Part shown: positions 35,901-60,849 of the stretch, piece by piece
How positions within the stretch are numbered: position 1 is the first letter of the stretch
How the letters are laid out: each line of letters begins with the position of its first letter
From: Glaucostegus cemiculus
Taxonomy: Eukaryota
DNA length: 64,000 bases
Assembly (NCBI GenBank): GCA_976551045.1
Contig: CDPCPM010000418.1
Location: forward strand, 744,001-808,000
Reading direction: 5' to 3'
Made by a program: the position numbers and the translations under genes
The notes under the pieces: generated by a model
Database searches by the model: none
What the model saw: only the letters and a program-made list of their open reading frames with translations
What the model was told of the DNA's origin: nothing

Positions 35901-36123
35901 TTTTAGACTGTAGGATAATCAACGGTTGTGGCACCATACAGGAAAGTGGAATAGTCAGAGATAAAAGAAGCCATAAACTTGCTTAATGTCTGAGTAAGTA
36001 CAAGCTTAAAGCCCATTCCTGCTCCTAATTCCCATAAGAAGCAGCTAAGAACCTACATGTGTTCCCTTGTGCTTAAAAGACTATTAATTTGATTCTGTAA
36101 CGTTTCCTCTTTCTTAGGGATAG
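2929..36123 (+). CDS. TMPRSS5: Transmembrane serine protease 5 (spinesin), whole gene; join(2929-2934,6905-7331,8316-8414,16266-16382,17007-17142,21732-21845,23167-23210,25602-25764,29072-29250,31306-31404,31491-31633,31748-31900,36118-36123), about 561 aa
   Basis: All exons have AG/GT boundaries with compatible phases (total 1686 nt). Domain order is cytoplasmic tail, TM, SRCR, trypsin domain. Motifs [38 protein letters not shown] and GDSGGP closely match recalled TMPRSS5. No LDLa exon was found (TMPRSS2/3 have one). The first and last exons are less certain. Confidence 0.9.
4583..4859 (-). mobile_element. tRNA-derived V-SINE (HE1-like)
   Basis: On the - strand: GGCACGGTAGTGTAGCGGTTAGC A-box head, GGTTCAAATCC B box, GGTTTCCTCCCACATT V-domain core and AATAAA tail. 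Confidence 0.8.
4860..5385 (+). mobile_element. CR1 LINE 3' fragment
   Basis: Encodes [14 protein letters not shown]...LSYEERL..LGLF.LE (CR1 RT C-terminus) and ends in the CR1 3' UTR. Confidence 0.8.
6905..7331 (+). CDS. TMPRSS5: TMPRSS5 exon 2, long acidic Ser/Thr/Pro-rich cytoplasmic tail
   Basis: Acceptor gctgcag|GAT, open 142-codon frame (ORF 6908-7339), donor TTCA|gtaagt in phase 1, which fits the TM exon. Confidence 0.8.
7850..8160 (+). mobile_element. Rex1/Babar-like LINE 3' tail
   Basis: Shares its tail with the RT-bearing copy at 13690-14515 (cagcttc...ataagattattgaatgg...tgacaataat.aaccaat). Confidence 0.7.
8316..8414 (+). CDS. TMPRSS5: TMPRSS5 exon 3, signal-anchor transmembrane helix
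   Basis: ttctacag|GA...ATCG|gtaaga. Encodes [32 protein letters not shown]: a basic stretch followed by a hydrophobic helix, i.e. type II topology. Confidence 0.88.
13690..14515 (+). mobile_element. Rex1/Babar-like LINE, 5'-truncated, degenerate RT C-terminus
   Basis: Encodes [10 protein letters not shown]...KELVIDFRK...[11 protein letters not shown] and [19 protein letters not shown], with frameshifts. Confidence 0.8.
14995..15465 (+). mobile_element. Deu-domain SINE (SacSINE1/AmnSINE1-like), interrupted
   Basis: Matches recalled Deu-domain motifs: ctcaggtggacgt.aaga..cc, gtcttggcca.tatttat, tgtgggaacttgct, cgctatataaatgcaa. Confidence 0.55.
16266..16382 (+). CDS. TMPRSS5: TMPRSS5 exon 4, stem region
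   Basis: Poly-T tract cctttag|TG...ACAG|gttggt, phase 1-1. Encodes [38 protein letters not shown]. Confidence 0.8.
17007..17142 (+). CDS. TMPRSS5: TMPRSS5 exon 5, SRCR domain start
   Basis: Encodes [46 protein letters not shown]; boundaries attcag| and AA|gtatgc. Confidence 0.9.
18235..20550 (+). mobile_element. CR1 LINE ORF2 (RT) relic, about 2.3 kb, with an antisense Rex/Babar-like tail inserted at about 19463-19710
   Basis: Encodes [11 protein letters not shown]...[20 protein letters not shown]...KFADDT and RDLGVLV...LYKALVR.HLE, with stops and frameshifts, and ends in the CR1 3' UTR. Confidence 0.9.
21732..21845 (+). CDS. TMPRSS5: TMPRSS5 exon 6, SRCR domain
   Basis: ccacag|A...TACAG|gtttgc, phase 2-2. 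Encodes [38 protein letters not shown]. Confidence 0.85.
22185..22460 (-). mobile_element. CR1 LINE 3' fragment
   Basis: ORF 22246-22449 ([20 protein letters not shown]...KRLLDRHM) is the CR1 C-terminus. Confidence 0.75.
22700..23015 (+). mobile_element. Deu-domain SINE, degenerate
   Basis: Contains ctgtccaatacttattccct.aacatcatcactaaaacagatcatcaggttatt, which resembles the Deu core. Confidence 0.5.
23167..23210 (+). CDS. TMPRSS5: TMPRSS5 exon 7, SRCR end (44 nt)
   Basis: Poly-T gccag|G...TCTG|gtaagt. Encodes [14 protein letters not shown], the typical TTSP C..G.V..L.C motif. Confidence 0.9.
24440..25215 (+). mobile_element. RTE-clade LINE 3' relic
   Basis: Degenerate remnants of an ASAAFGRL...TKL.VY.A.V...LLY..E.W-like segment and a short aagaag tail. 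Confidence 0.55.
25602..25764 (+). CDS. TMPRSS5: TMPRSS5 exon 8, activation site and catalytic His
   Basis: Encodes [53 protein letters not shown]; donor AG|gtaagt. Confidence 0.95.
26204..26865. mobile_element. Penelope-like inverted-terminus element interrupted by a CR1 3' fragment (26305-26585)
   Basis: Inverted ends gctggaggaactcagcagg / cctgctgagtccctccagc. The inner CR1 piece is flanked by ATCAGG at 26299 and 26586. Confidence 0.65.
27915..27952 (-). ncRNA. Minimal type I hammerhead ribozyme motif (Penelope-associated)
   Basis: The - strand reads CAGUC-CUGACGA-A-GGCU(CUCG)AGCC-GAAA-CG-UC|GAUUG. The core is intact, and stem I (5 bp, one G-U) and stem II pair. Confidence 0.7.
28711..28748 (+). 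ncRNA. Degenerate hammerhead ribozyme motif
   Basis: Reads CAGUC-CUGAUGA-ACGGUCUCGGCCU-GAAA-CA-UC-AACUG, with CpG-type decay in stems I and III. Confidence 0.45.
29072..29250 (+). CDS. TMPRSS5: TMPRSS5 exon 9, catalytic Asp
   Basis: Encodes [12 protein letters not shown]...[17 protein letters not shown]; boundaries ttgtag| and A|gtatga. Confidence 0.95.
29287..29618. mobile_element. Tc1/mariner (Tigger/pogo-like) MITE
   Basis: Perfect 12-bp TIRs CAGGTCCTCCCC...GGGGAGGACCTG, with TA on both sides (29285-86 and 29619-20). Confidence 0.85.
31306..31404 (+). CDS. TMPRSS5: TMPRSS5 exon 10
   Basis: Encodes [27 protein letters not shown]; boundaries ttacag| and T|gtaagt. Confidence 0.95.
31491..31633 (+). 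CDS. TMPRSS5: TMPRSS5 exon 11
   Basis: Encodes [43 protein letters not shown], with the S1-pocket Asp present. It follows an 86-nt intron. Confidence 0.95.
31748..31900 (+). CDS. TMPRSS5: TMPRSS5 exon 12, catalytic Ser
   Basis: Encodes [51 protein letters not shown]; donor GAG|gtaagg. Confidence 0.95.
34125..34720 (+). mobile_element. CR1 LINE 3' fragment
   Basis: Encodes [10 protein letters not shown]...[10 protein letters not shown]...[14 protein letters not shown] and has the ctctatgactct tail. Confidence 0.85.
35400..35625 (-). mobile_element. Degenerate V-SINE
   Basis: V-domain on the - strand (plus-strand text tttggaatgtggga.gaaaccagagca.cc). Confidence 0.6.
36118..36123 (+). CDS. 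TMPRSS5: TMPRSS5 putative terminal coding exon (G-stop; an alternative acceptor gives DNSVF-stop, 36124-36141)
   Basis: Strong pyrimidine tract tttcctctttcttag|GGATAG, followed by UTR-like sequence and AATAAA at 36686. Confidence 0.45.
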   Translation, partial: G

Positions 36124-36685
36124 GACAACTCTGTGTTTTAGAAAACACTCTGGAATCTATGAAACAAGAAGAAGAATGCTCTGCACAGAAGCAGAAAGGA
36201 GCAGATCTGATGGTTTTGTATGTCTCTGGGCATTAGACTTTGAGAACCTGTGTGGAATATTCCATCAGTGCAAAGAAAGTTGTTGTATCAGAGTCACTGA
36301 GTGAGAATCATCATGTGTGTTTTTTTCCTCCAGAAAATGCTCAGTGATTTGTGAACTTTTTTGCAGCCTGTGTGAAATTTGTGTCAGAAAGGGTTTTCCC
36401 CTTATTAAATCATATCAACAAGCTGCTTGATATTTTACAGCTGTTTGGGTCTGAGTATACCAACATGGACCTCATTTTTGTTTTACACATTTCACCAATC
36501 CTGGTGAACATCTGGTTGGCATGGACAATTTGGGCTGAATAGCCTGTTTCCAAGCTGTAAAAACTCCCTGACTCTATGACTCAATCCACTGTTTGAGGAC
36601 CTGCCCTGGCTTTGAGTCAAATGTGTAAAATGAGTGGTTCTCAGACTACTTTGGCCATAATTGTTCAAATCCACATTGAAGACAC

Positions 36686-36691
36686 AATAAA
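36686..36691 (+). terminator. Candidate polyadenylation signal for TMPRSS5
   Basis: AATAAA followed by T/GT-rich sequence, about 560 nt after the putative stop. Confidence 0.4.
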
Positions 36692-38049
36692 ATTTATCTT
36701 TTTAACTTGTGTTTCACTTCAATTTTGAGTGCTGCAGTGGTAGCTCTTGCTGCAAAGATGCAATAGCTTCCAAATTAAACTTTGTCTTTCAAACTGCCTT
36801 GTTCATGAGAGACAGGCTCAACCTAGGGTCATTAGCTGCAGTTGAGCACATATCTGGGAGGTTTTATCAGCCTTGTCAATCCATGGAACTTTTTTTTATC
36901 TTCCAAGTTTCTTTATTACTTATAAAGACTGAAGTGTTGGGAAAAAAATGAGAAACAAACATACCATTTTTTGATAGCCATACAACTTTGCTCCCTTTGT
37001 TTGCAGATGATGGAGTCTTGTAAATTAATCTATAGTTCTTTGGAACAATTCTAGATGGTTGACACCAAGACTCAGCTGAAGTTTATCTGTGACTCTTTAA
37101 ATCATACTTTGAGTAAAAAGATAAATTTCATATTGTTGAATGATTTTGGGTTAATTCCTGCTCTGAAGGCACAGAGGAATTTTGTAAAAACTTACTAAAT
37201 GATAAAATGGGAAATGATTGGTTTTATACTTTAGTGCAATTTTTTATTCAAATGAGGAAGGATTTGCATGAATTTGATGGTAGGTGGTTACCTTTTGTAG
37301 TTTGGGTAACTTTTTAACCATCTCAAATCTAAAGACAAATAGTAAAAAGGGAAGATTTCATGAAGTTTAATGGCTTGCAGAATGTCTTAATATTTTAAAG
37401 GAAGTACTTGGTTTAGACTGGGCCAGGCAAATCCAAAGTATTGATTGCCCGGTCCAGCCATACAAGGAAATTCTGGGCCAAATCACAGATGCAAGGTATA
37501 TGTTGGAAAACACTCAGTCTCCCATTACCACTTTGGATCCAGTTCTGTGCACGCCCCAACTTGTATTACTCTTCAACTGGTGGCTTCAAATTCAGCTGCT
37601 AAGGCCCTCAGCCCTGGAATTCATTCTCTAACTCTTTACATCACTAACTCTTCCTTGTATAACAATCCTTAAAAGCTATGATATCTCCTTATGAGACTCA
37701 GTGTCAAACTCTGTGAATACTGTGGAATGCTATATTACCGTAAAGGCACTAAATGTTGTAAGAAAAACAAGAAGAAAGGGTTTGTTATCAAAATGGCAAA
37801 AAAATTGCTAGATACTAATGAAATGCACTGTTGAGCTCTTCATGAAATGCAAGGATACGCAAGTAAAGTTTGCAAGTGATATTTCTGCCACAAAACAGTA
37901 GATGTGTCACAACAGGGATCATGATGCATAATTAAGGTAGGTACAACCTCTGAGGAGATTCAGCTTTATTAAATTCCTCCTTCCATCCCTCCATGCCACC
38001 CAAGTGGTATCTAATTAATTGAAATTGTTTTAAGAAGAGATGGTTCTTT

Positions 38050-40200
38050 ACACTGTGCATTCTTATCCTTATCTACAGCTATCTTAAAACTTAAGGAGTT
38101 GTGGTCACTGTTCCATTAACTGTTCTCCCACTGAGAGATCAGTCACCTGGCCAGGCTTGTTACCCAGCACCAGGTCCAGTACTGCCCCTCCTCTTGTCAG
38201 ACTATCTACATATTGATTAGGTGCAACCCTCCTGGATGCACCTGGATTCTGCCCTGTCTAAACCTCTTACACTAAGGAGATCCCAGTTTACATTAGGGAA
38301 GTTGCAGTCCCCCACAACAACAACCCTATTAGTTTTACACCTTTCCATAATCTGCATATCTATTTCAGTGACTATTGGGGGGCCTGTAGTATAAAGATTG
38401 CATCTTTCTTATTTTTGAGTTCTACTCATATAGATTCAGTGGACGAGCCCTTCACTGTGTCCCTCTGAGTGCAGCTGTGATATTCTCCCTGGGGTGGTGG
38501 TGGAGGCTGTTACATTGGTCAAGTTCAAGAGATTCTTAGATAAGCATATAGAGGAATTTAAAATAGAGGGATACGTAGGAGGAAGGGGTTAGATAGTCTT
38601 AGGTGTGGTTAGAAGATTAGCACAACATGGTGGGCCGAAGGGCCTGTATTGTTCTATAGTTTTGGGAGTTGCACTACTTCCATTCTTTTACGTCCCTCTC
38701 CATCTTTTCAAAAAGATCAAAACCCGGGAACATTAAGCACCCATTCCTGTTCCTCTCTCAACCAAGTCTCTATTATGTCACAACATCATAGTTCCATGTA
38801 CTGATGCAGGCTCTAAGTTCATTCATCACCCTTACCCATAATACTCCCAGCATTCAAATACACACTCTTCAAACTGTCCATCCCATCGTGTCTACTACTT
38901 TGCTCTGCCTGTTTTTACTGGGCCTGACATCTACCTTCCTCTCAATCCCTCCACTTTCTGACCCTGTGCTCTGGTTCCCATCCCCCTACAAACTAATTTA
39001 AACCCTCCTGAGTAGCACTAGTGAACCTTCCAGCCAGGATTTTGGTTCCCCTCCAGTTGAGGTGCAACCCATCCTTGTTGTACAGGTCACCCCTACCCCT
39101 GAAGAGGTTCCAATGATCCAAGAACTTGAAACTTTGTCCCCTGCATCAGTTCCTCATTCATCTGTTCTATCATCCTATTCCTACCCTGCCTAGCACATGT
39201 CACCGGGAGTAAGCCAGAGGTCCTTGGAGGTCCTGCTCGCCAGCCTCTTTCCTAACTCCCTATACTCACTGCACAGGACCTCTTCCCCTTTCTACCTACA
39301 TCATTGGTGTCAACATGCACCACAACCTCTGGCTGCTCACCCTCTCCCTTGAGAATATTCTGCAGCCACTCAGACATCCTCAACCCTCACACCTGGGGAA
39401 TGGGGGGGTGGGGGATGGTGCAAACACACCATCCTGGTGTCTCTTTCGTGGCCACATAATCTCCTGTCTGTCCCCATAACCGTCAAGTCTTCTATCACTA
39501 TTGCTCTGCCTGACTTTACCCTTCCCTGTTGAGCCACAGAGTCAGCCACAGTGCCAAAGACATGGCTGCTGCTGTGCTCTGATAGCTCACCAAAGGGGCA
39601 TACTTGTTGCCGAGGGGTATGACCACAGTGAACCCTGCACTGACTGCTTATTCCCCCTACTTCTCCTGGTGGTCACCCATTTATCTGAAGCCTGTACCCT
39701 GGGTGTAACTACCCCAGTAAAAGTCTCATCTGTGAGGTTTTCAGCTTCCCAGATGGCCTTGAGTACATCCAACTCCAGTTCCAGTTCCTTGACCTGGTCA
39801 GTCAACAACTGGGTGCACTTCTGGCAGGTATAGTCACCAGGGAGACTGAGGTTCCCTGACATCCCACATCTTACAGGAGGAGCATTCCACTGCTCTAACT
39901 ACCATCCTGCCTACATTGAATCAAAGACTAAGGATTTACAGACAACAAAATAAAGACCTTACCTGTTCTTACCTATGCCTTCTTACTGAGACCCTTTGTC
40001 AAAAGAGCTGCTCAACTCCCCTCACTTAGGTCACTTACTGAGCCTCTTCTCACTGAACCCACTTGAGCCAAATCCTCAATCCTTCTCCCTCTAACACTGA
40101 GCTACTCCAATAATAGCCACTCCATTTAATCCTAGCTTGTTTTTATTGGCCACTGCTAATTAGCCAATTATTACTAACAATATGCAAGTGTGCCTCTTTA
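38050..40200 (-). mobile_element. CR1 LINE 5' half (ORF1 plus APE endonuclease), with a + strand CR1 3' piece inserted at about 38490-38660
   Basis: ORF1-like YTCQKCTQLLTDQVKELELELD (Zn knuckle and coiled coil). APE remnants read WNYDVV...WL, VVVGDCNFPNVNW and VLDLVLGN. Confidence 0.75.
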
Positions 40201-40435
40201 AGAGTCCTGCTCACTGAAAATGAACACCAAGCACAGAGACTCACCTGAATGTTGCACAGCTCCAGTGAACCCAGTTTGATTCTGACAGTCCATGTGGAGT
40301 TTGTATTGGTTTCCCCCCAGTGCTCCAGTCTCCTCCCACCTCCAAAAGGTGCGCTGGCTTGCAGATTAATTGGCCACTGTAAGTTATCCTCAGTGTGAAA
40401 GGGTGGCAGAAGAATCAGGGGATGGAGGTAGTGAA

Positions 40436-40693
40436 TGGTATTGGGTTATTATTGTCACTTGTACCGAGGTACAGTGAAAAGCTTATCTTACAAACTGATT
40501 GTACAGGTCAATTCATTACACAGTGCAGTTACGTAGTTAGTACAAAGTGCATTGATGATGTACAGTAAAAACAGTGAAAGTGCAGTGCAATAAGGTGCAA
40601 GGTCACACAAGGTAGAACGTGATGTCATAGACCATCTCATTGTATAAGGGAACCGTTCAATAGTCTCACCACAGTGGGGTAAAAGCTGTTCAT
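40436..40693 (-). mobile_element. Rex/Babar-like LINE 3' tail
   Basis: Nearly identical to the tail inserted at 19463-19710. Confidence 0.7.
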
Positions 40694-40945
40694 GTGAGGA
40701 GGAGGGAACTGCGTAATAAGTGGGGGAATGGGACTAAAGGGATTGCCATGAAAGCTGGAATGGATGTGATGGGCCAAAAGGTAAATACTTTGACAATCAC
40801 TCTGAGTAAAATTTTAAATTATGAACATGATAATAGATTGCCACATGCACTGAAAATGGTGATAAGGTCCAAACAGTAGGTACTCCAGCATTATGACAAA
40901 GCTTACATTTAGTATTCTGGACTCAAGCCAAGATTCTGGACATGG

Positions 40946-41250
40946 AAGATAAGATAATATATTTATTTATTAGTCACATGTACATCGAAACACACAGTGA
41001 AATAAGTCTTTTTGCATTGCTAAGAGTGTGCTGGGGGCAGCCCTCAAGTGTCACCACTCTTCCAGCACCAACACAGCATGCCCGCAGCTCCTAACCTGTA
41101 CATCTTTGGGATGTGGGAGGAAACCGGAGCACCCGGAGGAAACCCACGCAGACACAGGGAGAACATACAAATTCCTTACAGGCAGTGGCAGGAATTGAAC
41201 CCAGGTCGCTGGCGCAGTAAAGTATTATGCTAACTGCTATTCTACTGTGC
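40946..41250 (-). mobile_element. V-SINE (HE1-like) just downstream of the ANKK1 stop
   Basis: Same head, core and tail as the copy at 4583-4859. Confidence 0.8.
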
Positions 41251-41331
41251 TCCAATAGATTTAATATCCCCAACATCTTGTTTACTAACTTTGAAGTTTT
41301 TCTGAGTTTGAAAGACACATAACAAAGTAAG

Positions 41332-42626
41332 TTATGAATTAGCTTTTGACGATTCTTCGGCTGTGAGTACACTGACCACACTGTGTTTCCGATGTTTCAC
41401 AGCTAACTGAAGGGGAGTGTTCTGATTCTCATCCCTAGCCTTCAAGTCAGCACCGTATGTAATCAGCGTCTTTACAATGGTTACACCACCACTCAGAGCT
41501 GCCAAATGCAGCGATGTCCACCCAAGTCGACTGACGGCATTAACATTGGCTTTGTGATCAAGCAACTTCATAAGACAGTGGAGTCTGCCTCTGTGGGCAG
41601 CAATGTGCAGTGCTGTCCATCCTGATGCTTCAGTAGCATCAGGATTGGCACCTCTTTCTAGGAGCTCAGAGACAACTTCCTCTTGGTTGTAGCAGGTTGC
41701 CAGATGTAAAGGAGTCCATTCACTGTCTCCACTGACATTAAGGTCAGATAAACTATCAATCAGAAGTCGTACTGTTGTTATTTGACCTTTCAAAGCAGCA
41801 AGATGCAGGGGTGTCCAGTTTTGCAAGGACTTTTGATTGACATTAGCTCCGTGCTTCAGGAGGTGCCTGCAGATACCTGTGTGGCCATTCAGTGCTGACA
41901 AATGCAGAGGGGTGTAATGAGAGCGGTCTAGACAATTGATATCAGCTCCACTGTTCACCAGCAGCCTTGTGACCCTGAAGAAACCCCGCTCAACCGCTAC
42001 ATGGAGGGGAGTCTTCAGGCCAATCTGTGCTTCATTGAGATCAGCTCCTTGACCAATCAGTAGCTTCATGATGTTGTAGTGACCATAATAAGCGGCGAGA
42101 TGAAGAGATGTGCGACGATCTGTCTCCTGTAAATTGACATTGGCCTGTCGAGCGAAGAGCACCCGGATTATGTTCTCATGGCCGTTCTGAGATGCCAGGT
42201 GGAGAGGTGTCCACCCGTCATGCTCCTTTACATTGATGTGGGCATCCTTGTCCAAAAGCAGCCGGGCAATGCGCTCATCCCCATTTTGAGAAGCAAAATG
42301 TAGAGGTGTCCATTTGTCTTCATCCACTAGATCCACTTGAGCTCCCTCCTGGATTAATAACATGCACAGATCCACAAGACTTTTCTGTACGGCTAGTATC
42401 AGAGGCGTGACCCCTCTGGATGTTTGAGCATTTACAGAGCCTCCGTATTTCAGTACAAGCTGAACAAACTCCATATCTCCAGTGAGAACAGCCAAGTGCA
42501 TCAAAGTGTAGTCTTCAACAAAGCTCAGGGTAACATGTTCTTTTTTGAATATTCTCTTCAAATTACTGATGTCTCTTTCCAGTAGAGATTGTAACAGCTC
42601 CCTTCTAGAATCAATGGAGACTTCAC
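41332..42626 (-). CDS. ANKK1: ANKK1 last exon, about 12 ankyrin repeats
   Basis: Lies within ORF 41332-42702 with TPLHLA-type motifs at 33-aa spacing; acceptor ttattgtag|GT GAA. Confidence 0.95.
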
Positions 42627-45600: not shown

Positions 45601-48600
45601 TACCATCAGATATTGTTTACAAAGCCACTTCTCTAATATCATTCAATCTGAAGAACCTGCTACCCCATACTTGAGCATAGCCCACGGTATATGGTTGACT
45701 CTTCATGTCTTTTGAATTAATATAACACATTGCATTTGTTTTTAGAAACTTGAGCAGTACTACCATAGGCAAACTGACCTACCAGCACTCCCCTCAGTCA
45801 GAGAAGAAATAAACAAGAAATTCATACCAATTTAGAGCACTGTATCTGTTAAATTCTAAACCTCGTGATTACAGAGATTATGTTAGGATGCAGAGTTTGG
45901 AGAATGTTCCAGGTTTGCCTATGTTAACCATGTTGAAGCATCATCATTAAGGACTGGTCAAAATCGCCCATCAATTACAAATGACCATTCAAGACAGCCA
46001 TTTTATGGTGATGACATTTCTTCCAGTCATTTTTCCTCAATTTCCTTAATATGTAATGTCACAATTTTATTTATTTTATAAATGTTTTACTATTCTTCAT
46101 CTTTTATTGGTTAATATTTTCTCTCCTGCTTTCAACAGCTCTACTCCACCTAAGCACAGCCACAATGTATAATTACAATGTTTCAATGTATAATTACATT
46201 GGATCTTGTGATCCAAGATCTTGGACACCAAGAGGTACCTTGGTGCAAACCATACATTTCCACTCACCTGGCCGTGGACCTTTGGCATCAGATGACAACC
46301 ACTCAGTCTCTGGAGAATGTATACATACTCACCTATGCTATCAGTCCCCGACAACAGACTCAACTTCAGCAATTCATAATTTGCAATCTCTGCAATTATT
46401 GTTCCATTCTATGGAAAATGAGAAAAGGAAGGTTGATTAACTGCTAGGAAATTCTACACCTTAATTCATTCAAGAACTATTTAGTAAGTCCCATATCATC
46501 TTGTAAGTGCCAAGTGTTTGCCAACTAAATTACACTTCATAGTAACAATGTCAATATTGAGGTATGCAGCCACCTAATTCACCCAGTCCACTGTCTGCAC
46601 TCTCTACGTGATCAATTCTCCCATAACTAGAACAAAACTACAAGCTTGGTCTTAGTGTAGCAACAAGTAAACCATCAGAAACAATGGTTTCATCTAAATT
46701 CCTGAAATTCATATGGGTGAAACTATGGCATAGATTTGGACAGAATAGGACAGGCCATGCAATCCTACTTGTAGGATTTTTAGCTGGCTCTGACTACTGG
46801 AACGCTCTACTAACCAGAGGAGTACCTTCATCAGAAGGGTTGCAACAGTTGAAGAAGGGTGGCTTGTCACCACCTTCTCAAGGGCGGTTAGGGATGGTCA
46901 ACAGATCCTTACCATTCCAGGGGCACACATATTCTAAAAATTAATAGATAAATTAGCTATCCTTTCTCACCTTATTTCGTCTCACTGACAGCATATCCTA
47001 ACTGGTAGAAGCAAAAATATTCAATCCCTGCCTTAGTTGTGGTATAGTGGCTAGCACTCTAGCTTCTGAATCGGATAACTGTGGATTCTGTCCTGCTCCA
47101 CACACCTAAGCTTTAATTTATCCCAAATTTAACATTTAAAAGAAAGACTATCCCAATTATATCTGTGGGATCATACTATGTACAAATTACGTGCCCAATT
47201 TCATCCATTACAACATTTGCCGTGAAACACTGGGGCTCAATCTAAGCTGTTTAAGGGTTTCTATTAATACTAGTTCATTTTTTCTTTCTCAACACAAATT
47301 CTTAAGAAGAAGCTATTATTAAGGTAAACAACGTCATTGAAGATCAGCATACGTGAAAGCTGCTTTGTGGTGACCGAGGAGTCATCTTTGATTTCTCAGT
47401 TGTCTTATTGGCTTGAATGTCTGGGTATTGTAAAAGGCCACACAATATTTCAGTTTCCACAATGATTTCTAGAAAGGAAATGTTTAAAAATTAACTATCT
47501 ATCTATTAATAAATTAAAAGCAAGAAAACTGGAAATACTTAGTAGGCCAGACAGCACTTTAGGAGGGAGGTACAAAGTTAAGATTTTAGGTTGGTGATCT
47601 TTCATCAGGGTGCACCGATGATAGGTCATTAACCTGAAACATTAACTCAGTTCGTCTCTCCACATTCTGCCTGATGTGTTCATCATTTCCAGCATTTTCT
47701 GTTTTTACTTAAGGTTTCCTGCATTTGCAGTTTTTTGGTTTTCAATATTAATTTGAATTTCCTGAAAATGATCAGCTCATAATTGACATGAATGTGAATC
47801 TAAGGCATATTTCTCTCCAAGCAATTTTCAGGATATGTGGTTTACACAAGTTTTATACTGAAACATGCTCCACATGAATGCCTTCAACAGTTTCTGCTTC
47901 TGCAAGTTATGTCCCCACGAATCTCATTAATACATCTCTGCTTCCACACAAAGTCGAAAAATGTCCCCAAATCTCTCTTTCTGCTATAAAATGGCAAATT
48001 ATTTTGCAACATTTTTAAAAACTATTTTTCATCACTAAGATCTAGACTGTATTTTGCTTTGAACACTTCTTTTAATGAATGTCTATAAAATCTTTAACAT
48101 AAAACTATTAAAAACACACACCCTTATCTAAACCTGCTGCATTTGATGTACATAAATCCTGAACTTAAGGTAGAGACACAATGTATGTTCAGTGTTTTCC
48201 TTGTGTCTTTGCTTGTTTTATTTCTGGGAAATATTGACATAGAATGCTATTTGCAAAAATGCCAATGATATTGCAGTTTGATTCCAGAGTTCATCAGGAC
48301 AAGGAAGTGCTGACCTTTACAAACTTGTTTAGGCGATAATAATGTATCATGAATTTTTTCCCCTCCCACTTTCTTTGCTCCACCATCAGTGGCCATGACT
48401 TCAGTCCTCTAGAGCATAACCTCCGAGACTCACTCCCCAAACCTCCACGGCTATTTGTTGGTCAGGATCTTGGTCATCTGTTATATTACCTCCTTCTCTC
48501 GCTCTGCATCAACTCATTTCATCTCACTAGGGTCTGTGAAGCATCCCTCTTGGCTCCTACTAAAGACATTATATCAGAGAGTCATTGAGTCATACAGCAC

Positions 48601-51600
48601 AGAAGCAGGCCCTTCAGTCCAACTGGTTCATGCTGACCAAGATTCCTACTTCGCCGTGTTTGGCCCAAATCTCTAGAAATTCTTCCTATCCATATACCTG
48701 TTGAAGTGCCTTTTGAATGTTGTTAATGTACCTGCCTCATCCACTTCTTCTGGCAGCTTGTTACATATACTGACCACTTGCTGGGTGAAAAAATGTAAGA
48801 TTATTACTATTGACACCAAGAACAAGCAATTCAGAGCCAATAACACAATGTCACATACAGAAAAATCCACAATGAGTCACAATTACATACATTTCAATTA
48901 TAAGCATGAACCCTCTGGATGGTTGCTGGTCATAAATCAAGAGCCAGTGAGAGATAACCAGGCAACTGATAGAGGCCATTGCTTAATGTTGTTATCAGAA
49001 TATTGCTTGGTAATAGGTATCAGGTTCTTGATTTGAATCCAAAAATATATTGGTTTATTATAGAGGATTAAATAATCACACAATGTGCAAAGAGTTTCCT
49101 TGCACATCTTGATGTGTTAAATCCAAATACTTTTCTCCAACACCTAGTTCAAAACCATCTGTAAACAAAGTCCACAATTCAATACATGTTTGTTGCCCCA
49201 TCAATAAGAAACATGCCTGAGAATGCAGGCCGTCTTTTTGGTTCCTGATCCCAACATCTTTGCATCAATTCAACCACCTGTGCACATCCTGGTGGACCAT
49301 TTTCTGGAATTATGTTGAGGCATGGTCTCTCTCCCACTACCACCTTCACAAATACAGCCATTATGTTTGTCCCTGAAATGTAGAAAAGCAGACAGAAGCG
49401 CTGAGGTACTCAGAAGTATCAGCTCTTTATCAACACTGAGTGTATGATCTAAGATGGTGTACCATAGCTTAAGTATGCAAATATAACATTATAACATCAC
49501 CAAGGTACAAATACTTTTCTCCAACACCTAGTTCAAAACCATCTGTAAACAAAGTCCACTATGTTTGTCCCTGAAATGTAGAAAAGCAGACAGAAGCGCT
49601 GAGGTACTCAGAAGTATCAGCTCTTTATCAACACTGAGTGTATGATCTAAGATGGTGTACCATAGCTTAAGTATGCAAATATAACATTATAACATCNNNN
49701 NNNNNNNNNNNNNNNNNNNNNNNNNNNNNNNNNNNNNNNNNNNNNNNNNNNNNNNNNNNNNNNNNNNNNNNNNNNNNNNNNNNNNNNNNNNNNNNNNNNN
49801 NNNNNNNNNNNNNNNNNNNNNNNNNNNNNNNNNNNNNNNNNCAGGAGGAATATATTTAGCTTACCTCTACCCTTATAGACTGTGAGCTCTAGATCATCAC
49901 CACAATGTTAAAACAATTCCCCTTGCGACCCTACCCACCTTTTTTTTTCACCCTTCATTTCAAATCTGTTTCCCTTGGTCCTTGACTCATCTACTATTGG
50001 GAACAACTTCACTCTATTTACCCTATCTCAGCACATCATCACTTCAACCACCTGTACCAAATCTCCATGGGCAAAGACAAAATTAATTTGAAATGCATGG
50101 ATTCTTCTCAGTGATTTGAAGAAATGAAAAGGAAGAAGCAACTGTTGACGTCAACTGGAATCCAAGAATCGTTGAGAACATATTAATAAATTTATTTTAG
50201 CTTCTAGTTTTATATGAAGAAGGTATCATTCTTGGCTACCATTTTCATCAACATATTTCTTTTGCATAGTTTTAATATACAGCTGCAAACCTACTCATCC
50301 TAAACAGGTTAATAAACAGGTTACCCAATGCACTCCTAGAGTAAATGAAATTTTCTGATGTTATGGTGAATCATATAAACCATTAAATTATTTTCTGAGG
50401 AGCAATAATGCAGGATCTCTCCATGGATCACTAAGTACCACAGAAATGATTTTGCAAAGCAAGCAGACAAATTAATTGTATTCAAACCCATCCATCTTCA
50501 TTGACCACAAAACTCTCCAGCAAAATTAATGTTAGTGATCATAATTAATAGCTGTAATAACAATGAATACATCCATCATAGTAAGATCATACTCGTAGAT
50601 GGGCCTTCTATGAGTAACTCAGTAAATCTCATTCACAAAGTTTTCTGTAAAGGCAATAGCAGTGGCCAGGATTACTGTAGTGATGTGCTTGCAGGAAGAA
50701 TTAGTAATGGTGTTACCAGCATAGGGCTTCTGCTGAGTCAGGACCTCCCACACAACAATGGAGAAGCTGGAAAAATAAAAGTTCACAGTAAGTTTCTTCA
50801 TGACAGGACAGCTAGCCAGAGTAAATCAAGTGCAAGTATTTTATAACTGGATGAAGAAATGATGTTTCAATATAAATCAATTAAACTACTAACTTTCAAT
50901 TCTGCTGTACCTTTATCATATAATGAATAATGATAGAAAATATCCGTGAAGGGCAGGAGGCTGAGGGGTGGCCTTAGAGAGTCAGGTAAAATCTTGAGGG
51001 ACATAGATAGGGTGGATTGTCATGGTCTTTTTCCCAGTGCAGGGGAGTCAAAAACTGAGGACATGAATTTAAGGTGAGAGTGGAAAGAAATAAAAGGGAC
51101 CTGAGAGGATTTTTTTTCACACAGTGGGCAGTGGGTACATGTAAACAAGCTGCCAGAGGAAGCTGCAGAGGTGGGTACAATTACGGTGTCTAAAAGACAT
51201 TTAGACAGGCACATGGATAGAAGAGGGACATGGGCCAAACGCAGGCAAATGGGACTAGCTTGGACAGACATCTTGGTCAGCATGGACCAGTTGGGCTGAA
51301 GGGCCTGTTTCCATGCTGTATAACACTTTGACTCTATCCCAAATTACTTTACAGGAGTGTTATCAAACAAAATTTAACATTAAACCACATGAGATTTTAG
51401 AAGAGCTTCAAAATCTTGGTTAGGGAGGCAGGCTTTAAGGAACAACTTAAAGGAGGAAAGAGGAGAGAAGAGATGGTTTAATGGAATTCCAAAGCTTTGT
51501 ACTTAGGGGGCTGAAAGAACAACAACTAATGGTAAATCAGCCAAAGTTGAGAGCAGCAGTGTTCTCAGAGGCTTGAGATTATAGAGATAAAAAAGTGAGG

Positions 51601-54600: not shown

Positions 54601-57600
54601 ATGTCCAAGCCAGTACTTATCCCTCAAACAACACAACTAAAAAGATTACCTGATCTTTGTTCTATCACTGTAGGATCTTGCTGCCTGCAAATTGCCTGCC
54701 ATAATAGCTATGTGGCTGAACTCCATAAATACTTCATCAGGAGATACCATGACATTATTCCTTTTTCCTTGTTGTATTGTGCCAAAAAATTATGAATTTA
54801 TGCCCTAACATTTTTGTCTCTCCAACGAGTTTTCTGTACACATTCCCCATCAAAGCCTCACAGGTGCCGAGACAACTATATTTTTTCCGCTCAGGATAAG
54901 CTTCAAAGTAAGTGGAATGAATGTCCACTCAGGAACTACGTAGAAGGTTAAAGGCTGAGACACACAATTTCTCTAAGATTCAATATGAAATCTCTCCTGT
55001 GGTTAGTAATGGGAAAGATGTTATTGGCTGAAGGACTGCTGGGCCAATTGCAGATTCCCTACTTTCATTTGAATGTAAACAATGACGCTAAGGTCAAATA
55101 TTCAATCATCTCCATCACAAATCATTTTCAATGTAATAATAGTATTTAGATATAAAACAAGATAAAGCATCTCAAAGACATGGGTTGAATTGGTGAACAG
55201 GTCAGGAGACATAATACGTAAAACTACTAAGCTGTGGGAAGTAAGTTTGTTTTCTGTGTGGGATGATCAAGAAGGCTGGCACTATTAGAACTTAGAGATG
55301 ACTAGGCACATTATCATATCAGGTTACCAGTTTGGATAAGTATCAGGAAAGGTGGTTGGACTTTCAAGATAGATTGGGTGCTGAAGTATTCCCAAGACTG
55401 GGTTCATAGAGGAGTTACACGACTAAAGCAAGGGCCCAACCAAGTAGCATAGAGCAAGCATCCACAAACTCCAGAATTGGTAGAAAATAGAAAGAGAAAA
55501 AGAGAGAGAAAGAGAAAGAGAGAGAGAGAGAGAGAGGAAGAGAAAAAGAGAGAAAGTGAGAAAGAAAGGCAAATATACATTCATATATTAAATGAAAATC
55601 ATTAAATAATGCAGATGCTGCAAATCTGAAACAAAACAGAAAATGCTAGAAACTCTCAGGTCAGGCACCATCGAAGAAAGAGAAACAGATTCAATGTTAC
55701 AGGTTGCTGAAGCTTCATCAGAACATGCAGAAAGCAACTTTCACAACCCCAGTATATCCAGAAGCAATTTATCATCAGTGAAGCTCTTTTGAATTAGAAA
55801 TCATAGCAAGTAATTTACACACAGCAACCTCCAACAAAGAACAATGTGACCCTGAGTAGGTAATCTGATCTGGTGATGTTGATGGGGATGTTGGTCAATA
55901 CACTATACCTCCTTCACATTGTCAGAACCCTATAATCATTATATTATAGATGGAGGGTGCTCAGCCCACTGCACAGGTGACAGTGAGCTATTGATTACTT
56001 ACAGTGAGAGGACAGGTGGAACCTCATTTAACTTCTCGTCTAAGTGACAGCAATTCTAACTATGCTGTAGTAGCACACACAAAATGCTGGAGGAACTCAG
56101 CAGGTCAAGCAGTATCTATGGGGGGAAGTGAACAGTCAACGTTTCAGGTCGAGACCTTACATCAGGACCGTCCTGATGAAGGGTCTTGGCCCGAAACTTC
56201 AACTAGTCATTTCCCTCCACAGGTGCTGCCTGACCTGCTGAGTTCCTCCAGCATTTTGTGTGTGTTACTCCAGATCTCCAGCATCTGCAGTCTCTTGTGT
56301 CTAACTCTGCTGTACTCTATCAATCCCGTACTGGAGCATCAGCCTAACTTTGTGCTAAATTGTCTTTAGAATGAAACTTAAAGACATAACTGAATCCCGT
56401 AACCCAATGAGTCTAACCTGTAAATATCATGCTCGACTCCAGAAGGTGCGCTTGATAATTCTGGTGGCATATAGATGATGGTTCCTCTCTTTGCAGACCT
56501 TTCAATTTGTTCCATATTGCTCAAGGTATCTTCCCATTTTGATAATCCAAAATCTGCGATCTATATAATACAAAAATAACATGCTTGTTACTGAGCACAA
56601 ACCTTTCCTTTCGTTTACATGCCTCTTTGTTGAATAAAGCTTATTATTATTTTGTTACATTGCATGCATTGGTTTGACAACTAGGAGATGTATGAAGGCA
56701 GATGTGCTGCACAAACCTCTGAACAAGCAATTATTCTCAACACCATTTAATGAGATGGCCTGTCACTTTAATTCTGTCTCACTTCCACTTTGATCATTCT
56801 GTCTTTAGCCTATTATTATACCGGTCCAATGAAATTCAACACAAGCTTAAAGACTACCCCGTAGACCGAGGAATCCTATTGTGCTTAGAAATGTATGCTA
56901 AAGTGGTATAATAGCCCCCAGAACACTATGCAAAAGATGCATTTCACTGCATGTTTTGATGTACATGTGACCAATAAAGATATTTATTTACCTATCTAGT
57001 AATGGACCTGAGCTAGTTTTTGCCAGGGCAGTGGGGAAGAGATATTCCTACATGATAGACACACAAAGAATTGTACATTTAAGCAGTGGCATTTTCTGAC
57101 CTTCAATACATTTATGCATGCAATTTCAAATGCCATGCTGGAAGGAAAATTCACAAGTGCACCCTTGCTACTTGACAAGAGCTCCTGAGGTAGAAATCCT
57201 CAACAGAACTCATTGCTTCAAACCATGAAGCCTGATCAGATTACCTTCCAGTGGGTTGGTAGGATGGAAGCAGGAATTAGCCCTATTTCTCTGAAAGATG
57301 ATTGGACATCATTGTGTTGTAGGTCAATGTCTAGAACATTGGAATGGTCAGGCCACTACCCACCCCCCCAACAATGGCAGCTCACTTTCACTGCCTGTCT
57401 AACCTGCACTGTAGGAGAAGATTCCAGGGTTGCCCTCAGCAGCAGACACTCTGAAGGTGGTGCCACTAAGAATTATAACTTACATTAGGCAAGACTTCTT
57501 CTTCCTGCTGAGGCTTGTCTTTCCACTTGTTTCATGCATATTTGCGCTTAAATATTGCAACAGTGATAGGTATCTATTGCACAAGGAGTAACTATTGTTG

Positions 57601-60600
57601 CATGCACAATGGCCTTCATGGTACATCACACACACACACAAATGAATTTCACAGTGTCCATCATGTTCACACCAGCTGCTTTTCACAATCAATCTTCTAC
57701 TTTGAATATATTGAGCAGTATATAAAAAGTGCTACACAACAGAAATCTATCTCCATACTTTCTACTGGGCACATTGCACCTAACTTCAAAACTTTGAGAT
57801 AACGATCTTGTTAATCTCATTTCTATCTCTTCTAAACCCTATTTACTTGTTTCACTGTCTTTCTCTTTTGCCTCACATGATCATCCAAATGACTTGTTTC
57901 ACTTAATCTCATCTGCCTTCCTCTGTAAACATCGTTCCCATTATCCTTTCCCTCTGTCCTTACCTTCTCTACATTTGAACACTTATTTTGTCTCTTTTTC
58001 CTGCTCTTATATAAGGTCAGTGACATGAAACTTTAACTTTGTTTCTGTCTCCACAGACGCTGCCTGATCTGTTGTGTGTTTCCATGCTTTAATTGCGAAG
58101 GTGACTTCACATTGGCCACTCCGATACTGGCGTAACAAATGAACTTTCACCACTTGCCAGAATTTGTGCCCTCAACTGATGACTTTAATACAGTGCTGTA
58201 CTGCAATGTCTATTGTATAGCTTATTTCTTATCATACTGCTTTCATCTGTAATGCAATCTGCCTTTCAGACTTAAAGGTAAAGGAAAGCGGAGTTTTGCT
58301 TTAAATTTTATATGACAGTGCAGAAATTCCTCAATACTCCACTGTGGCGTCAGTCAGCATTATATGCTAAAATGGGACTTCAACCTACAACCATCCAATG
58401 CCAAGATGAAAGAGCTAACACTAAGCCAAAGCTGGCAGCTAGTTGCTTTCACATCAACTGTCTTAAAAGTGTCAGATATAATAACTTCCAGTCAGACAAT
58501 CAACACAGCAACCTTGACGTGGAGGTTTTCATCCAAGAGTATGTTTCCAGGTTTCAGCTCCAGGTGAAGTAGAGGTGGATTCATACTATGCAAGAAATTC
58601 ATTCCCAAAGCCATCTCATGAATAATCCGGAATTTCATTGGCCAAGGTAACGTATCCCTGACAAGCAGCTTATCCAGCGAGCCATTTTCCAAATATTCCA
58701 TTACAATTCCGGCTGGTTGTGTACAAATCCCATATATTGGCAAAATATGCTTAAACCTCACTCTTGACATCTTTGCTGCCTCCTCCATCAAATGCTTCAT
58801 GTTCCTGTAATAAGTTCAAGAAGAAAGATAATTTCCCAAGGCATATTTCTATAACATCCTTTTGCAGAATTTGATTCATTGTTTTTTTTACCAGATTTCC
58901 ATTTCTCCTACAATATTCAGGCCTCAAAAACCTACATCAACTGTGACTAAATACTAAGTTAGTTACCCTGAGCTAGAAATCTGATGTTGGCATAAAATAA
59001 GTGATATTGAATTGGCCACTGATTATTAGCTGTTACTTATCCTGATATAATTTCAGCCACTGTACTCAACGTGATAAAAGCAAGTTGCGTTCAGAATTAT
59101 TTCTCCAGTCAAACAAAACTGTGAATGCCATTAGTCAGTTTAAATTCCATAAAGGCAGCTTGAAGGAGGAGCCAAACCATACAAATAAAGCACCACCGCA
59201 ATTTGTTCAGGCATGTTTGGCAAGTCTTTTTAAGTTGAATTGACATAGATTTAATTGGAGAAAAGTTTGCCATTTGGACTTTTAATTAATCTCAACAGTT
59301 CAAATCAGGGGAAGCCACCCTATATCTGTATATTATCTCCTAAAGTTAAAGGGATATCTGCACTTTAACAAAAGTTAAGGATAATATTGTTCATTAACAA
59401 AGAAATTGTAAACTGATTCTTACTTTTCCTATTCAAGGAGCTGGCACAGTCTATCATAAATATTCACTGGTTTCCTCATTTATTCTTTTATCCATTCACA
59501 TTTGCAGCATTAAATAGATTAATTGGCCAACAGGTGTTAAGGAGTTTCCTCTCCACTGGACCACCTAATTGTATCCATTTTTATCTTTTTCCTCTTACAT
59601 GTCTGTTTAGCTTTTCCTTAAGTGCATCAGTGCTAGGCAATTCAATTACATGTTGCGGTGGTGAGTTCCAGATTCAGGCTATTCTCTGAGTAAAGAATCT
59701 TCTCCCGAATTCAGCACTGGATTTATTTAGTGGCATCTGGTATTTATGTTCCCTAGTTCTGGCCTCACTTACATACAAATATCTTCCGTATGAACGCCCT
59801 CTCTAACCCTTGAACGCCTGTGTCAGGTCACTTCTCAAGTTCCTTTCTTGCAAAGGTAAGAACCTGAGTTTATTCAGATTATTCTGATAGGTCACCCTTA
59901 CCTGACCATTCAGGCTCTTTGAAGACACACGAATGTAAGAAATAGACTCAGGAGTAAACTCCAAAGCTCCTTGTATTCTCCACTTTTCAATAAGATCAGC
60001 TTAATGTTAACATCACTCTTTGCTCTGTCCTATATCTCCTGATCGCCTTTGTACCCAAGAATCTATTGACTTCAGATTTAAAAGTACTCAGTGAATGAGC
60101 ATCCACAGCTCTGTGGAATAGAGAAATCCAAAGATTCACTACCCTCTGATTGCAGAAAATTCTCCATATCTCAGTCTGAAACTACCAATCCCTTCTCCTG
60201 AGACTATGACCCCTACTTCTACAACCTCCAGACAGGGATAGATGATAGCAGTCTGATTCCACAGATCCATAAATTCATAAATAGGGAAAAGCTTAAATGG
60301 TTCTAATGCCTTCAGTTGTATTCCTCGTAATACAGACACAGTCACTTCACTTAGATCCCATGATCTATTGAAGGCAATTAAAATTAAAAATAACATTGAA
60401 AATAACATTGAGTAAAATGCTGAAAATTTCATTCCTTTCCCTCTCATTCAATTGAATCCACCCAGATCAGATTGGCTTTGGTTTGTCTAAACAAACGAGT
60501 TAATCCCCTCCCTAGCCAGGAACAGCCTTGGAATACCATCTAAGTTTAGCTCCTGTTAATTGATTACAACATCTTAAATTACCAGTTTAAATTTCTTTGA

Positions 60601-60849
60601 AAAGTGAATGCATCTCTAACTGTAAATTATAATCTCTGGCACTCACCTTTCGAATGAAGATGATTCTTCACATAATAAATGGTAACACTTTAAGGCCAAG
60701 TTCACCCGCCACAATTTGTGTTTTATTTTGAAGACACTTGCAAAACTTCCTGATGTAATCTTGTTGAAAGACACAAAGTCATCCTCTGTAAACTCGTTGG
60801 GAGTGATGCCTGACTGCTGAAGGACAGAGTCCTTCTGTTCATCTGCCAT
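41332..60849 (-). CDS. ANKK1: Ankyrin repeat and protein kinase domain-containing protein 1 (RIPK family), whole gene; complement(join(41332-42626,46333-46408,47353-47468,49217-49372,50717-50766,56418-56560,58513-58804,60647-60849)), 776 aa
   Basis: Phases are consistent (2331 nt). Kinase motifs are [21 protein letters not shown] and MPPE. LKPGN, GLSKW...IERSA.RG and IIVETEIL match recalled ANKK1 rather than RIPK4 (LKPAN, GLAKC). It has C-terminal ankyrin repeats and neighbours TMPRSS5. Confidence 0.88.
43867..43922. repeat. 26-bp tandem duplication
   Basis: TCTTTGTCATTGGAAGCTGACTGCAA twice, exact. Confidence 0.9.
46333..46408 (-). CDS. ANKK1: ANKK1 exon 7, linker
   Basis: ttttccatag|AAT...ATAG|gtgagt. 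Encodes [25 protein letters not shown]; phase 0-1 fits the last exon. Confidence 0.8.
46971..46997 (-). CDS. ANKK1: Possible ANKK1 27-nt micro-exon (DMLSVRRNK)
   Basis: tttttgcttctaccagttag|GAT...AAG|gtgaga; phase 0-0, so it preserves the frame between exons 6 and 7. Confidence 0.4.
47353..47468 (-). CDS. ANKK1: ANKK1 exon 6, linker
   Basis: ttcctttctag|AA...CAC|gtatgc. Encodes [19 protein letters not shown]..., which resembles recalled ANKK1 DITIETDILLSLLQ. Confidence 0.85.
47515..47735. mobile_element. Old Penelope-derived palindromic element
   Basis: Inverted arms gaaaactggaaatact...ctttcatcagg / ccgatgataggtc...cctgaaacatt...tttccagcattttc. Confidence 0.55.
49217..49372 (-). CDS. ANKK1: ANKK1 exon 5, kinase C-lobe end, with GC donor
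   Basis: Encodes [16 protein letters not shown]...[17 protein letters not shown]; acceptor catttcag|, donor CAG|gcatgt. Confidence 0.88.
49508..49696. repeat. Exact local duplicate of 49124-49175 plus 49362-49498
   Basis: Identical 52-bp and 137-bp blocks joined with the intervening 186 bp missing; abuts the N gap. Confidence 0.9.
49697..49841. other. Assembly gap (145 N)
   Basis: Run of N. Confidence 1.
50717..50766 (-). CDS. ANKK1: ANKK1 exon 4 (50 nt)
   Basis: Encodes [17 protein letters not shown]; boundaries tttttccag| and G|gtaaca. Confidence 0.93.
50950..51337 (+). mobile_element. CR1 LINE 3' fragment
   Basis: aggaggctgaggggtg.cctta.agag...gggctgaagggcctgtttccatgctgta...gactcta. 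Confidence 0.8.
52072..52361 (+). mobile_element. V-SINE with tail type A (gactaataaa-(tctta)n)
   Basis: B box GGTTCAATTCT and V-domain; tail as in the copies at 4583 and 40946. Confidence 0.8.
52408..52672 (+). mobile_element. V-SINE with CR1-type tail
   Basis: A box TAGCGTAGCGG, B box GGTTCAATTCC, V-domain, then gactcgttgggctgaaagggcctgtt (CR1 3' end) and (tttaaa)n. Confidence 0.8.
53459..54053 (-). mobile_element. 5'-truncated L1-clade LINE with perfect 16-bp TSD
   Basis: ORF2 C-terminus [18 protein letters not shown]...LNLEKIR...[14 protein letters not shown]-rich 3' UTR, AATAAA and A-rich tail. TSD CACATCATACAACACT at 53443-53458 and 54054-54069. Confidence 0.85.
54381..54608. repeat. 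59-bp minisatellite (about 3.9 copies) inside a Deu-domain SINE (about 54290-54745)
   Basis: GACTTAAAAGATCACTACTTTGAAGAACAGAGGAATTTCTCCTGATGTCCAAAAGGGTT starts at 54381, 54440, 54499 and 54558. Confidence 0.9.
55488..55570. repeat. GA-rich microsatellite
   Basis: (GA)n/(GAAA)n tract. Confidence 0.9.
56072..56300. mobile_element. Penelope-derived hairpin element with head-to-head hammerhead-like motifs
   Basis: About 95-bp inverted arms centred near 56169 (catcaggac-c-gtcctgatg). TSD-like ctaactatgctgtagt (56056) and ctaactctgctgtact (56301). Confidence 0.75.
56418..56560 (-). CDS. ANKK1: ANKK1 exon 3, DFG and activation segment (absent from ORF track)
   Basis: Encodes [48 protein letters not shown]; boundaries tatatag| and AG|gttaga. 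Confidence 0.93.
58513..58804 (-). CDS. ANKK1: ANKK1 exon 2, alphaC helix to catalytic loop
   Basis: Encodes [12 protein letters not shown]...[31 protein letters not shown]; boundaries ttacag| and AAG|gttgct. Confidence 0.95.
60647..60849 (-). CDS. ANKK1: ANKK1 exon 1, kinase N-lobe
   Basis: Kozak GCCATGG; encodes MADEQK...[28 protein letters not shown]; donor AG|gtgagt. Confidence 0.9.

Follow-up and report, generated by a model that had tools for sequence, protein, structure and literature searches.

The question raised by this locus is whether an ANKK1 (RIPK5) gene with glutamate in place of the catalytic aspartate reflects a genuine state of the gene, and whether the protein that it encodes would still act as a kinase. 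In the window (the whole stretch of 64,000 nucleotides analysed here), the minus strand at 58566-58543 reads CAC CTG GAG CTG AAA CCT GGA AAC, that is, H L E L K P G N, and the sequence-only reading that had drawn attention to the GAG at 58560-58558 was correct on this point. Exons were placed by tblastn with four chondrichthyan ANKK1 proteins and then joined at splice sites. The eight exons spliced together give 2331 nt and 776 aa with 0 internal stops (Table 1), in agreement with the earlier description of an otherwise intact frame of that length. Intron 5 is of the GC-AG type, its GC donor (CAG/GCATGT, at 49217-49216) being needed for the frame; the other six introns are GT-AG. The protein retains Lys54, αC Glu76, His148, Lys152, Asn155, DFG168-170, the GT of the P+1 loop (Thr192) and PPE. 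Thus, among the residues expected of a canonical active kinase, the β3 Lys, αC Glu, catalytic Asn and DFG Asp are all present, as had been claimed, and only the HxD Asp is replaced (Glu150).

Table 1. Coordinates of the exons and kinase motifs of ANKK1 in the window.
Feature	Position	Strand	Remarks
Exon 1	60647..60849	-	ATG at 60849
Gly-loop T32-A37	60756-60739	-	exon 1
β3 Lys54	60690-60688	-	exon 1
Exon 2	58513..58804	-	catalytic loop HLELKPGN; Pfam PK_Tyr_Ser-Thr, E 3.6e-17
αC Glu76	58782-58780	-	exon 2
GAG codon, Glu150	58558..58560	-	exon 2; replaces HxD catalytic Asp
Catalytic Asn155	58545-58543	-	exon 2
Exon 3	56418..56560	-	DFG168-170 at 56554-56546; P+1 loop GT; PPE
Exon 4	50717..50766	-	
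Exon 5	49217..49372	-	GC donor after exon (GC-AG intron)
Exon 6	47353..47468	-	kinase domain end, linker
Exon 7	46333..46408	-	
Exon 8	41332..42626	-	ankyrin-repeat region and stop codon; Pfam Ank_2, E 2.6e-96

A search with exon 2 returned 49 proteins at E ≤ 1e-30 among 103 candidates, and every gene-named one was ANKK1. The best match was Narcine ANKK1 (86% identity), and identities ranged from 72 to 86% for 10 chondrichthyan ANKK1 matches vs. 64% for bamboo-shark RIPK4 (row P0278). Over the two regions of the protein, identity to Narcine ANKK1 was 84% (kinase) and 81% (ankyrin), and no closer orthologue was found in protein searches with exon 2 and an ankyrin-only query. A quick tree of the ankyrin region alone (57 rows, without the catalytic site and without a RIPK4 row) grouped the window with Narcine and skates (SH-aLRT 99). 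The Pfam architecture, with a RIP-type kinase domain ahead of ankyrin repeats in one 776-aa frame, is that of ANKK1. By homology, then, the gene is an intact batoid ANKK1. The loop between PPE and the αF Asp is shorter in chondrichthyan ANKK1 (window 56418-56560, P0001-P0010) than in the dolphin and sablefish orthologues.

About 9.4 kb (31925-41331) lie between the ANKK1 stop codon and the final exon of a convergent plus-strand gene for a trypsin-family protease, in which Pfam Trypsin was detected in four frames at 29019-31924 and for which an Atlas look-up gave only "trypsin domain"; by human synteny this neighbour may be TMPRSS5. No GPCR family was found in 62 plus-strand frames of at least 42 aa at 31950-41330, and DRD2 does not appear directly behind ANKK1 in the window; synteny was compared on this downstream side, the upstream neighbour of ANKK1 lying beyond the window. 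The NCAM1-TTC12-ANKK1-DRD2 cluster has been described as conserved (PMC7177674, available text), and we found no paper on the absence of DRD2 directly behind ANKK1. Intron 4 contains a 145-base N gap (49697-49841); the stretch after the gap (49696-49362) recurs 198 bases on, with 137/137 compared bases identical and the exon 5 acceptor included, and this repeat probably arose as an assembly artefact where scaffolds were joined.

The reads at 58558, whose inspection had been proposed in order to recognise a base-call error or a rare allele, were compared as assembled contigs from four of 13 listed runs (X1, X2, X8, and X11), and no change was listed at the codon in any of the four. Run X1 (the window's organism, depth about 4) displayed 0 differences over 58380-58960 (581 bases). 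Over the same interval, the runs of organism B (X2, at a depth of 13.6) and organism C (X8, at 15.9) each yielded one contig with 23 differing letters, of which 22 and 21, respectively, were itemised and none was listed at 58558-58560; both organisms diverge by ~4% from the window there. Run X11 (organism D, depth 2.9) spans the GAG codon without a listed change, 1/4 of its contig differences being itemised. X1 may still be heterozygous, since contigs drop rare variants; it is also shallow and perhaps the source of the assembly itself, and these are the points that favour an error or a rare allele. Against them stand the codon without listed change in organisms B, C, and D and the presence of Glu at the same site in Amblyraja, Leucoraja, Rhinoraja, and three further skate-cluster proteins (Narcine has Lys), a shared state that already refuted this explanation, with Asp in none of the eight batoid rows. 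An error or rare allele is therefore extremely improbable, and Glu150 is, as far as the alignments and contigs tell, a clade-wide batoid state.

The catalytic site was surveyed in a 253-row alignment, from which the ankyrin-only proteins P0050 and P0104 were dropped before counting and in which a few rows were assigned to clades by similarity. The alignment of the motif across chondrichthyan ANKK1 separated batoids, with Glu in 7/8 rows, Lys in 1/8 (Narcine) and Asp in 0/8 (five taxa plus three skate-cluster proteins), from sharks, with Asp in 10/11 rows and Asn in the remaining one (Heterodontus, the horn shark). All neopterygian rows (gar, bowfin, and teleosts) carried Asn (126/126; P0048, P0052, P0062, P0087, P0089, P0095-P0097, P0137-P0254), and bichir and sturgeon rows carried Asp (5/5). 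Squamates were divided, with Asn in 4/8 rows (two geckos, Elgaria, and Lacerta; P0057, P0059, P0061, P0107) and Asp in 4/8; Asp was found in Podarcis, Zootoca, skinks, and a cordylid (P0058, P0416-P0420, P0079, P0081, P0105). The other lobe-finned and tetrapod rows had Asp without exception (95/95). As 118 of the neopterygian rows came from an Asn-bearing query (best 120 of 410 matches), a bias toward Asn is possible in that set; the seven rows obtained through the ankyrin-only query (gar, bowfin, eel, and four salmonid rows) and the one found with the exon 2 query were all Asn as well. Further cluster members agreed: another bowfin and another species of eel have Asn, and Zootoca and further Podarcis have Asp, which leaves the Asn of Lacerta agilis as either a recent change of its own or an error in one genome. 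The Lys of Narcine and the Asn of Heterodontus and of Lacerta come from one genome apiece.

These counts overturn the premise that HLDLKP(G/A)N is general for ANKK1. Since ANKK1 is not always HLD, Glu150 is better described as a recurrent, clade-wide state than as an oddity of one species. Zebrafish or other otophysan ANKK1 was not among the named proteins in the best 120 of 410 matches; bracketed by eel, salmonids, pike, neoteleosts, gar, and bowfin, zebrafish ankk1 is predicted to carry Asn. In a parsimony analysis of 56 taxa, run on an assumed species tree, the catalytic site took 7 steps vs. a median of 6 over 266 kinase columns; Lys54, His148, Asn155, Glu199, Asp210, and Arg277 took 0 steps each, and Lys152 and DFG Asp168 1 step each. 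On the alignments and tree used, the catalytic Asp is independently lost four to six times, the number depending on the direction of the squamate change. In neopterygians the invariance of Asn indicates that the site is constrained there, not free. In RIPK4-type control sequences, Asp143 was invariant (21/21); six of these are named RIPK4 (five carpet sharks and puma), the rest were assigned by similarity, and none is known to come from a batoid.

Other kinase motifs varied to different extents. The αC Glu is Val in skates (6/8 batoid rows; P0004, P0006, P0129), and Rhinoraja has DVG for DFG. Bamboo sharks have NFG for DFG in 3/3 rows with HLD kept (P0010, P0135, P0136), and Hemiscyllium has in addition Asn for the catalytic-loop Lys (HLDLN), so that motif variants (DVG, DIG, NFG, HLDLN) are scattered over chondrichthyan ANKK1. 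The P+1 Thr is replaced by Asn or Ser in neopterygians (126/126) and in all Asn-bearing squamates; Ser occurs there also in Podarcis, which has the catalytic Asp. The central Gly of the glycine-rich loop is kept in 22/126 neopterygian rows and is gone from most teleosts. Lys152, Asn155, and Asp168, in turn, are invariant in 126/126 neopterygians and 8/8 batoid rows. The glycine-rich loop of the window does have a single Gly (TSGSFASV), as the sequence-only reading pointed out, but this is uninformative: Asp-bearing sharks share the single-Gly loop, the third Gly position being Ala or Thr in 11/11 shark rows and the first being Ala in 88/95 other sarcopterygian rows, and we dropped it as evidence of lost catalysis.

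The suggested estimate of dN/dS for the kinase domain was made on exon 2. Against organism B there were 4 non-synonymous and 6 synonymous changes (pN/pS 0.18), and against organism C 4 and 7 (pN/pS 0.15); the counts are small and without transition correction, and the two organisms share most changes. Run X11 was not used for this purpose (partial cover; 1 non-synonymous and 4 synonymous changes). The window retains 78/86 near-invariant positions, defined by conservation of 98% or more among bony vertebrates that have the Asp, as compared to 71-78 in Asp-bearing sharks and 73-74 in skates; P0044, P0127, and P0054, with aberrant kinase halves, and three near-duplicates were left out of this count. 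The ratio of kinase to ankyrin branch length was 0.76 in crown batoids, 0.82 in neopterygians, and 1.17 in geckos, vs. 0.59-1.23 in Asp clades. On the stems where Asp was lost the ratio was 1.28-1.56; two Asp-keeping stems reached 1.32 and 1.34, and stem acceleration was accordingly discarded as a signal of Asp loss. Three 726-aa HLE proteins of the skate cluster lie on contigs of only 2.3-2.6 kb, as against the 19.5 kb spanned by the window gene, and are thus likely to represent spliced transcripts in skates.

Relaxed selection on ANKK1 or on its kinase half, with the gene heading for loss, could account for the motif damage scattered over chondrichthyans (DVG, DIG, NFG, HLDLN). An open 776-aa frame, the low pN/pS of exon 2, a kinase rate not above that of the ankyrin region, the 78/86 conserved sites retained and the persistence of the Asp-less state, with frames intact, in gar, bowfin, and teleosts all argue in the opposite direction, and make such decay very unlikely. 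In these comparisons the kinase domain displays no sign of decay.

The interpretation that we favour, with a probability of about 0.7, is that ANKK1 here is a folded pseudokinase, likely Mg-ATP-binding, which would scaffold partners without phosphorylating them. By the sequence definition of a pseudokinase, a protein lacking at least one of the VAIK Lys, HRD Asp, and DFG Asp (PMC4718504), it belongs to this class, the HRD Asp being absent. A single Asp-to-Glu change on the batoid stem would have been followed by a change to Lys in Narcine. With the HxD Asp, the catalytic base, gone, phosphotransfer would be crippled, whereas nucleotide and metal binding would persist, as suggested by Lys54, Asn155, and Asp168 staying fixed while the catalytic Asp changes; a lost base together with fixed Lys, Asn, and DFG Asp would show the pattern of a nucleotide-bound, non-catalytic domain. 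Selection may then maintain a non-catalytic role, for which the Wnt/PCP RhoGEF scaffolding that has been proposed for human ANKK1 is a plausible candidate. The comparative evidence thus backs the pseudokinase and scaffold branch of the original proposal of an ATP-binding but catalytically impaired scaffold, of which we infer inactivity and ATP binding.

Structural and published data are consistent with this interpretation. The predicted kinase model of a skate ANKK1, taken as a stand-in for the window (83-84% kinase identity), had a pLDDT of 84.7 and superposed on RIPK4 D143N structures with TM values of 0.88-0.90 on target (0.88 for mouse RIPK4 D143N with ATP, 5WNI), so that the kinase fold is retained in the model. 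An Asp-to-Glu change greatly lowers the activity of Csk, and Asp-to-Asn changes in several kinases lower activity severely without abolishing it, a trace remaining (PMC3223231, available text). In RIPK2, the D146N form is reported to be a staurosporine-bound dimer in the active state (PMC5436651). A Wnt/PCP scaffold role with binding of FARP1 and WGEF has been proposed for human ANKK1; FARP1 was pulled down by the kinase domain on its own, and the K51R mutant left the wound-closure effect unchanged, in work on human cell lines that relied partly on overexpression (PMC11477271, available text). Some features of the window protein weigh on the other side: Glu keeps a carboxylate, and Glu76, Lys152, and the P+1 Thr192 are kept. 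Judged by its residues, this ANKK1 is the least degraded among the Asp-less forms.

The same features invite the idea of a slow but real kinase, in which Glu (and Asn elsewhere) permits low yet biologically relevant autophosphorylation, as proposed for HER3 and JAK2 JH2. Every other catalytic residue is retained in the window, the Lys152, Asn155, and Asp168 invariance extends over neopterygians and batoids, and the HER3 and JAK2 JH2 pseudokinases are reported to autophosphorylate weakly (PMC4718504). This idea has difficulty, however, with Lys at the site in Narcine, with the loss of the αC Glu in skates, with NFG in bamboo sharks, and with neopterygians, which have lost the P+1 Thr and, for the most part, the central loop Gly. 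Damage by several independent routes is more easily reconciled with catalysis that is dispensable than with catalysis that is tuned, and we consider a slow kinase unlikely. As a sub-case of the scaffold interpretation, a dead ANKK1 kinase might pair side-to-side with RIPK4 or with itself and so tune RIPK4, the allosteric model being KSR with RAF. In RIPK2, activation and side-by-side dimerisation are coupled, and the D146N form is still an active-state dimer (PMC5436651).

When skate ANKK1 15-297 was modelled together with bamboo-shark RIPK4 10-292 (a cross-species pair, alignments unused), the predicted complex scored 0.55 vs. 0.06 for the best of three controls, which lends the pairing slight support; runs agreed in at least 93% of contacts and partner pLDDT was at least 81. 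The mark applied to this score was passed by 51/78 solved complexes and 2/108 mismatched pairs, and among eukaryotes by 39/65 solved pairs without a like complex and 2/126 unrelated pairs, close partner relatives being uncalibrated. Scores of 0.60 or less comprised only 5/78 solved complexes and all four passing mismatches (of 180). Solved RIPK2 kinase dimers exist, so the pass may reflect likeness, and the binding family member is not discriminated. The low score range and the solved like dimers meant that the prediction shifted the odds little. At the equivalent of RIPK2 Arg74, aligned by eye, the window has Arg, skates have Lys, and Narcine has Asn, so the position is not fixed, and an ANKK1-RIPK4 interaction was not found reported in the literature seen; we regard this pairing as improbable.

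Extended to jawed vertebrates, the pseudokinase interpretation becomes more tentative. ANKK1 would be a kinase-to-pseudokinase switch thrown at least four to six times, in batoids, horn shark, neopterygians, geckos, Elgaria, and Lacerta, with an NFG route in bamboo sharks, and its conserved function, in humans included, would be nucleotide-bound scaffolding rather than catalysis; we place this somewhat short of even odds. If true, zebrafish ankk1 would be a naturally occurring D145N-type pseudokinase, with a knockout phenotype that does not depend on kinase activity; loss of zebrafish ankk1 alters dopaminergic traits (PMC8861280, available text). ANKK1 carries the much-studied TaqIA variant, and zebrafish ankk1 serves as a model of this human addiction-linked gene, so a caution applies: the orthologue in fish models is likely to be catalytically impaired. 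ANKK1 has been called a protein without known function or interactors (PMC12119088); natural loss of the base with fixed ATP- and metal-binding residues offers direct tests of its need for kinase activity. Ray and shark, gar and sturgeon, and Lacerta and Podarcis would provide matched natural pairs for studying pseudokinase origin.

No report of ANKK1 losing the catalytic Asp was found in the literature searched, most subscription journals lying outside the search. Natural Asp loss in ANKK1 is not mentioned in the available text of PMC12119088, nor by term search in 12 of its 31 supplementary files, although RIPK5 gene losses are reported there, and it is likewise absent from the available parts of PMC9573974, PMC10492769, PMC8861280, and PMC7177674. 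Pseudokinases and lineage-limited catalytic loss are already known kinds, and we provisionally regard the recurrent natural loss of Asp in ANKK1 as new.

Comparison with known systems places the locus among these. Human ANKK1/RIPK5/SgK288 shares with the window a RIP-type kinase at the N terminus and ankyrin repeats at the C terminus; it has Asp145 where the window has Glu150, Asp being kept by tetrapods except some squamates, and its D145N form has been used as a kinase mutant (PMC12119088). RIPK4 is the closest solved kinase domain (E 2e-81), and its D143N change (PDB 5WNI-5WNM) is engineered, whereas ANKK1 lost the Asp in nature, and the loss is fixed in entire clades. Asp is kept in natural RIPK4-type sequences, unlike batoid ANKK1. 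HER3 and JAK JH2 carry Asn for the catalytic Asp. They keep the β3 Lys, the catalytic Asn and, in HER3, the DFG Asp, and their ATP is bound together with a single cation (PMC4718504); they share these retained residues with ANKK1, which may likewise bind ATP, but belong to other kinase groups. Unlike either, ANKK1 has both Asp-bearing and Asp-less states among its orthologues, with several switches. Feline RIPK3, in which a catalytic residue is mutated (PMC12119088), resembles ANKK1 as a lineage-restricted catalytic loss in a RIP kinase with a non-catalytic function kept; the feline loss concerns one mammalian family, whereas the losses in ANKK1 are several, independent, and partly very old.
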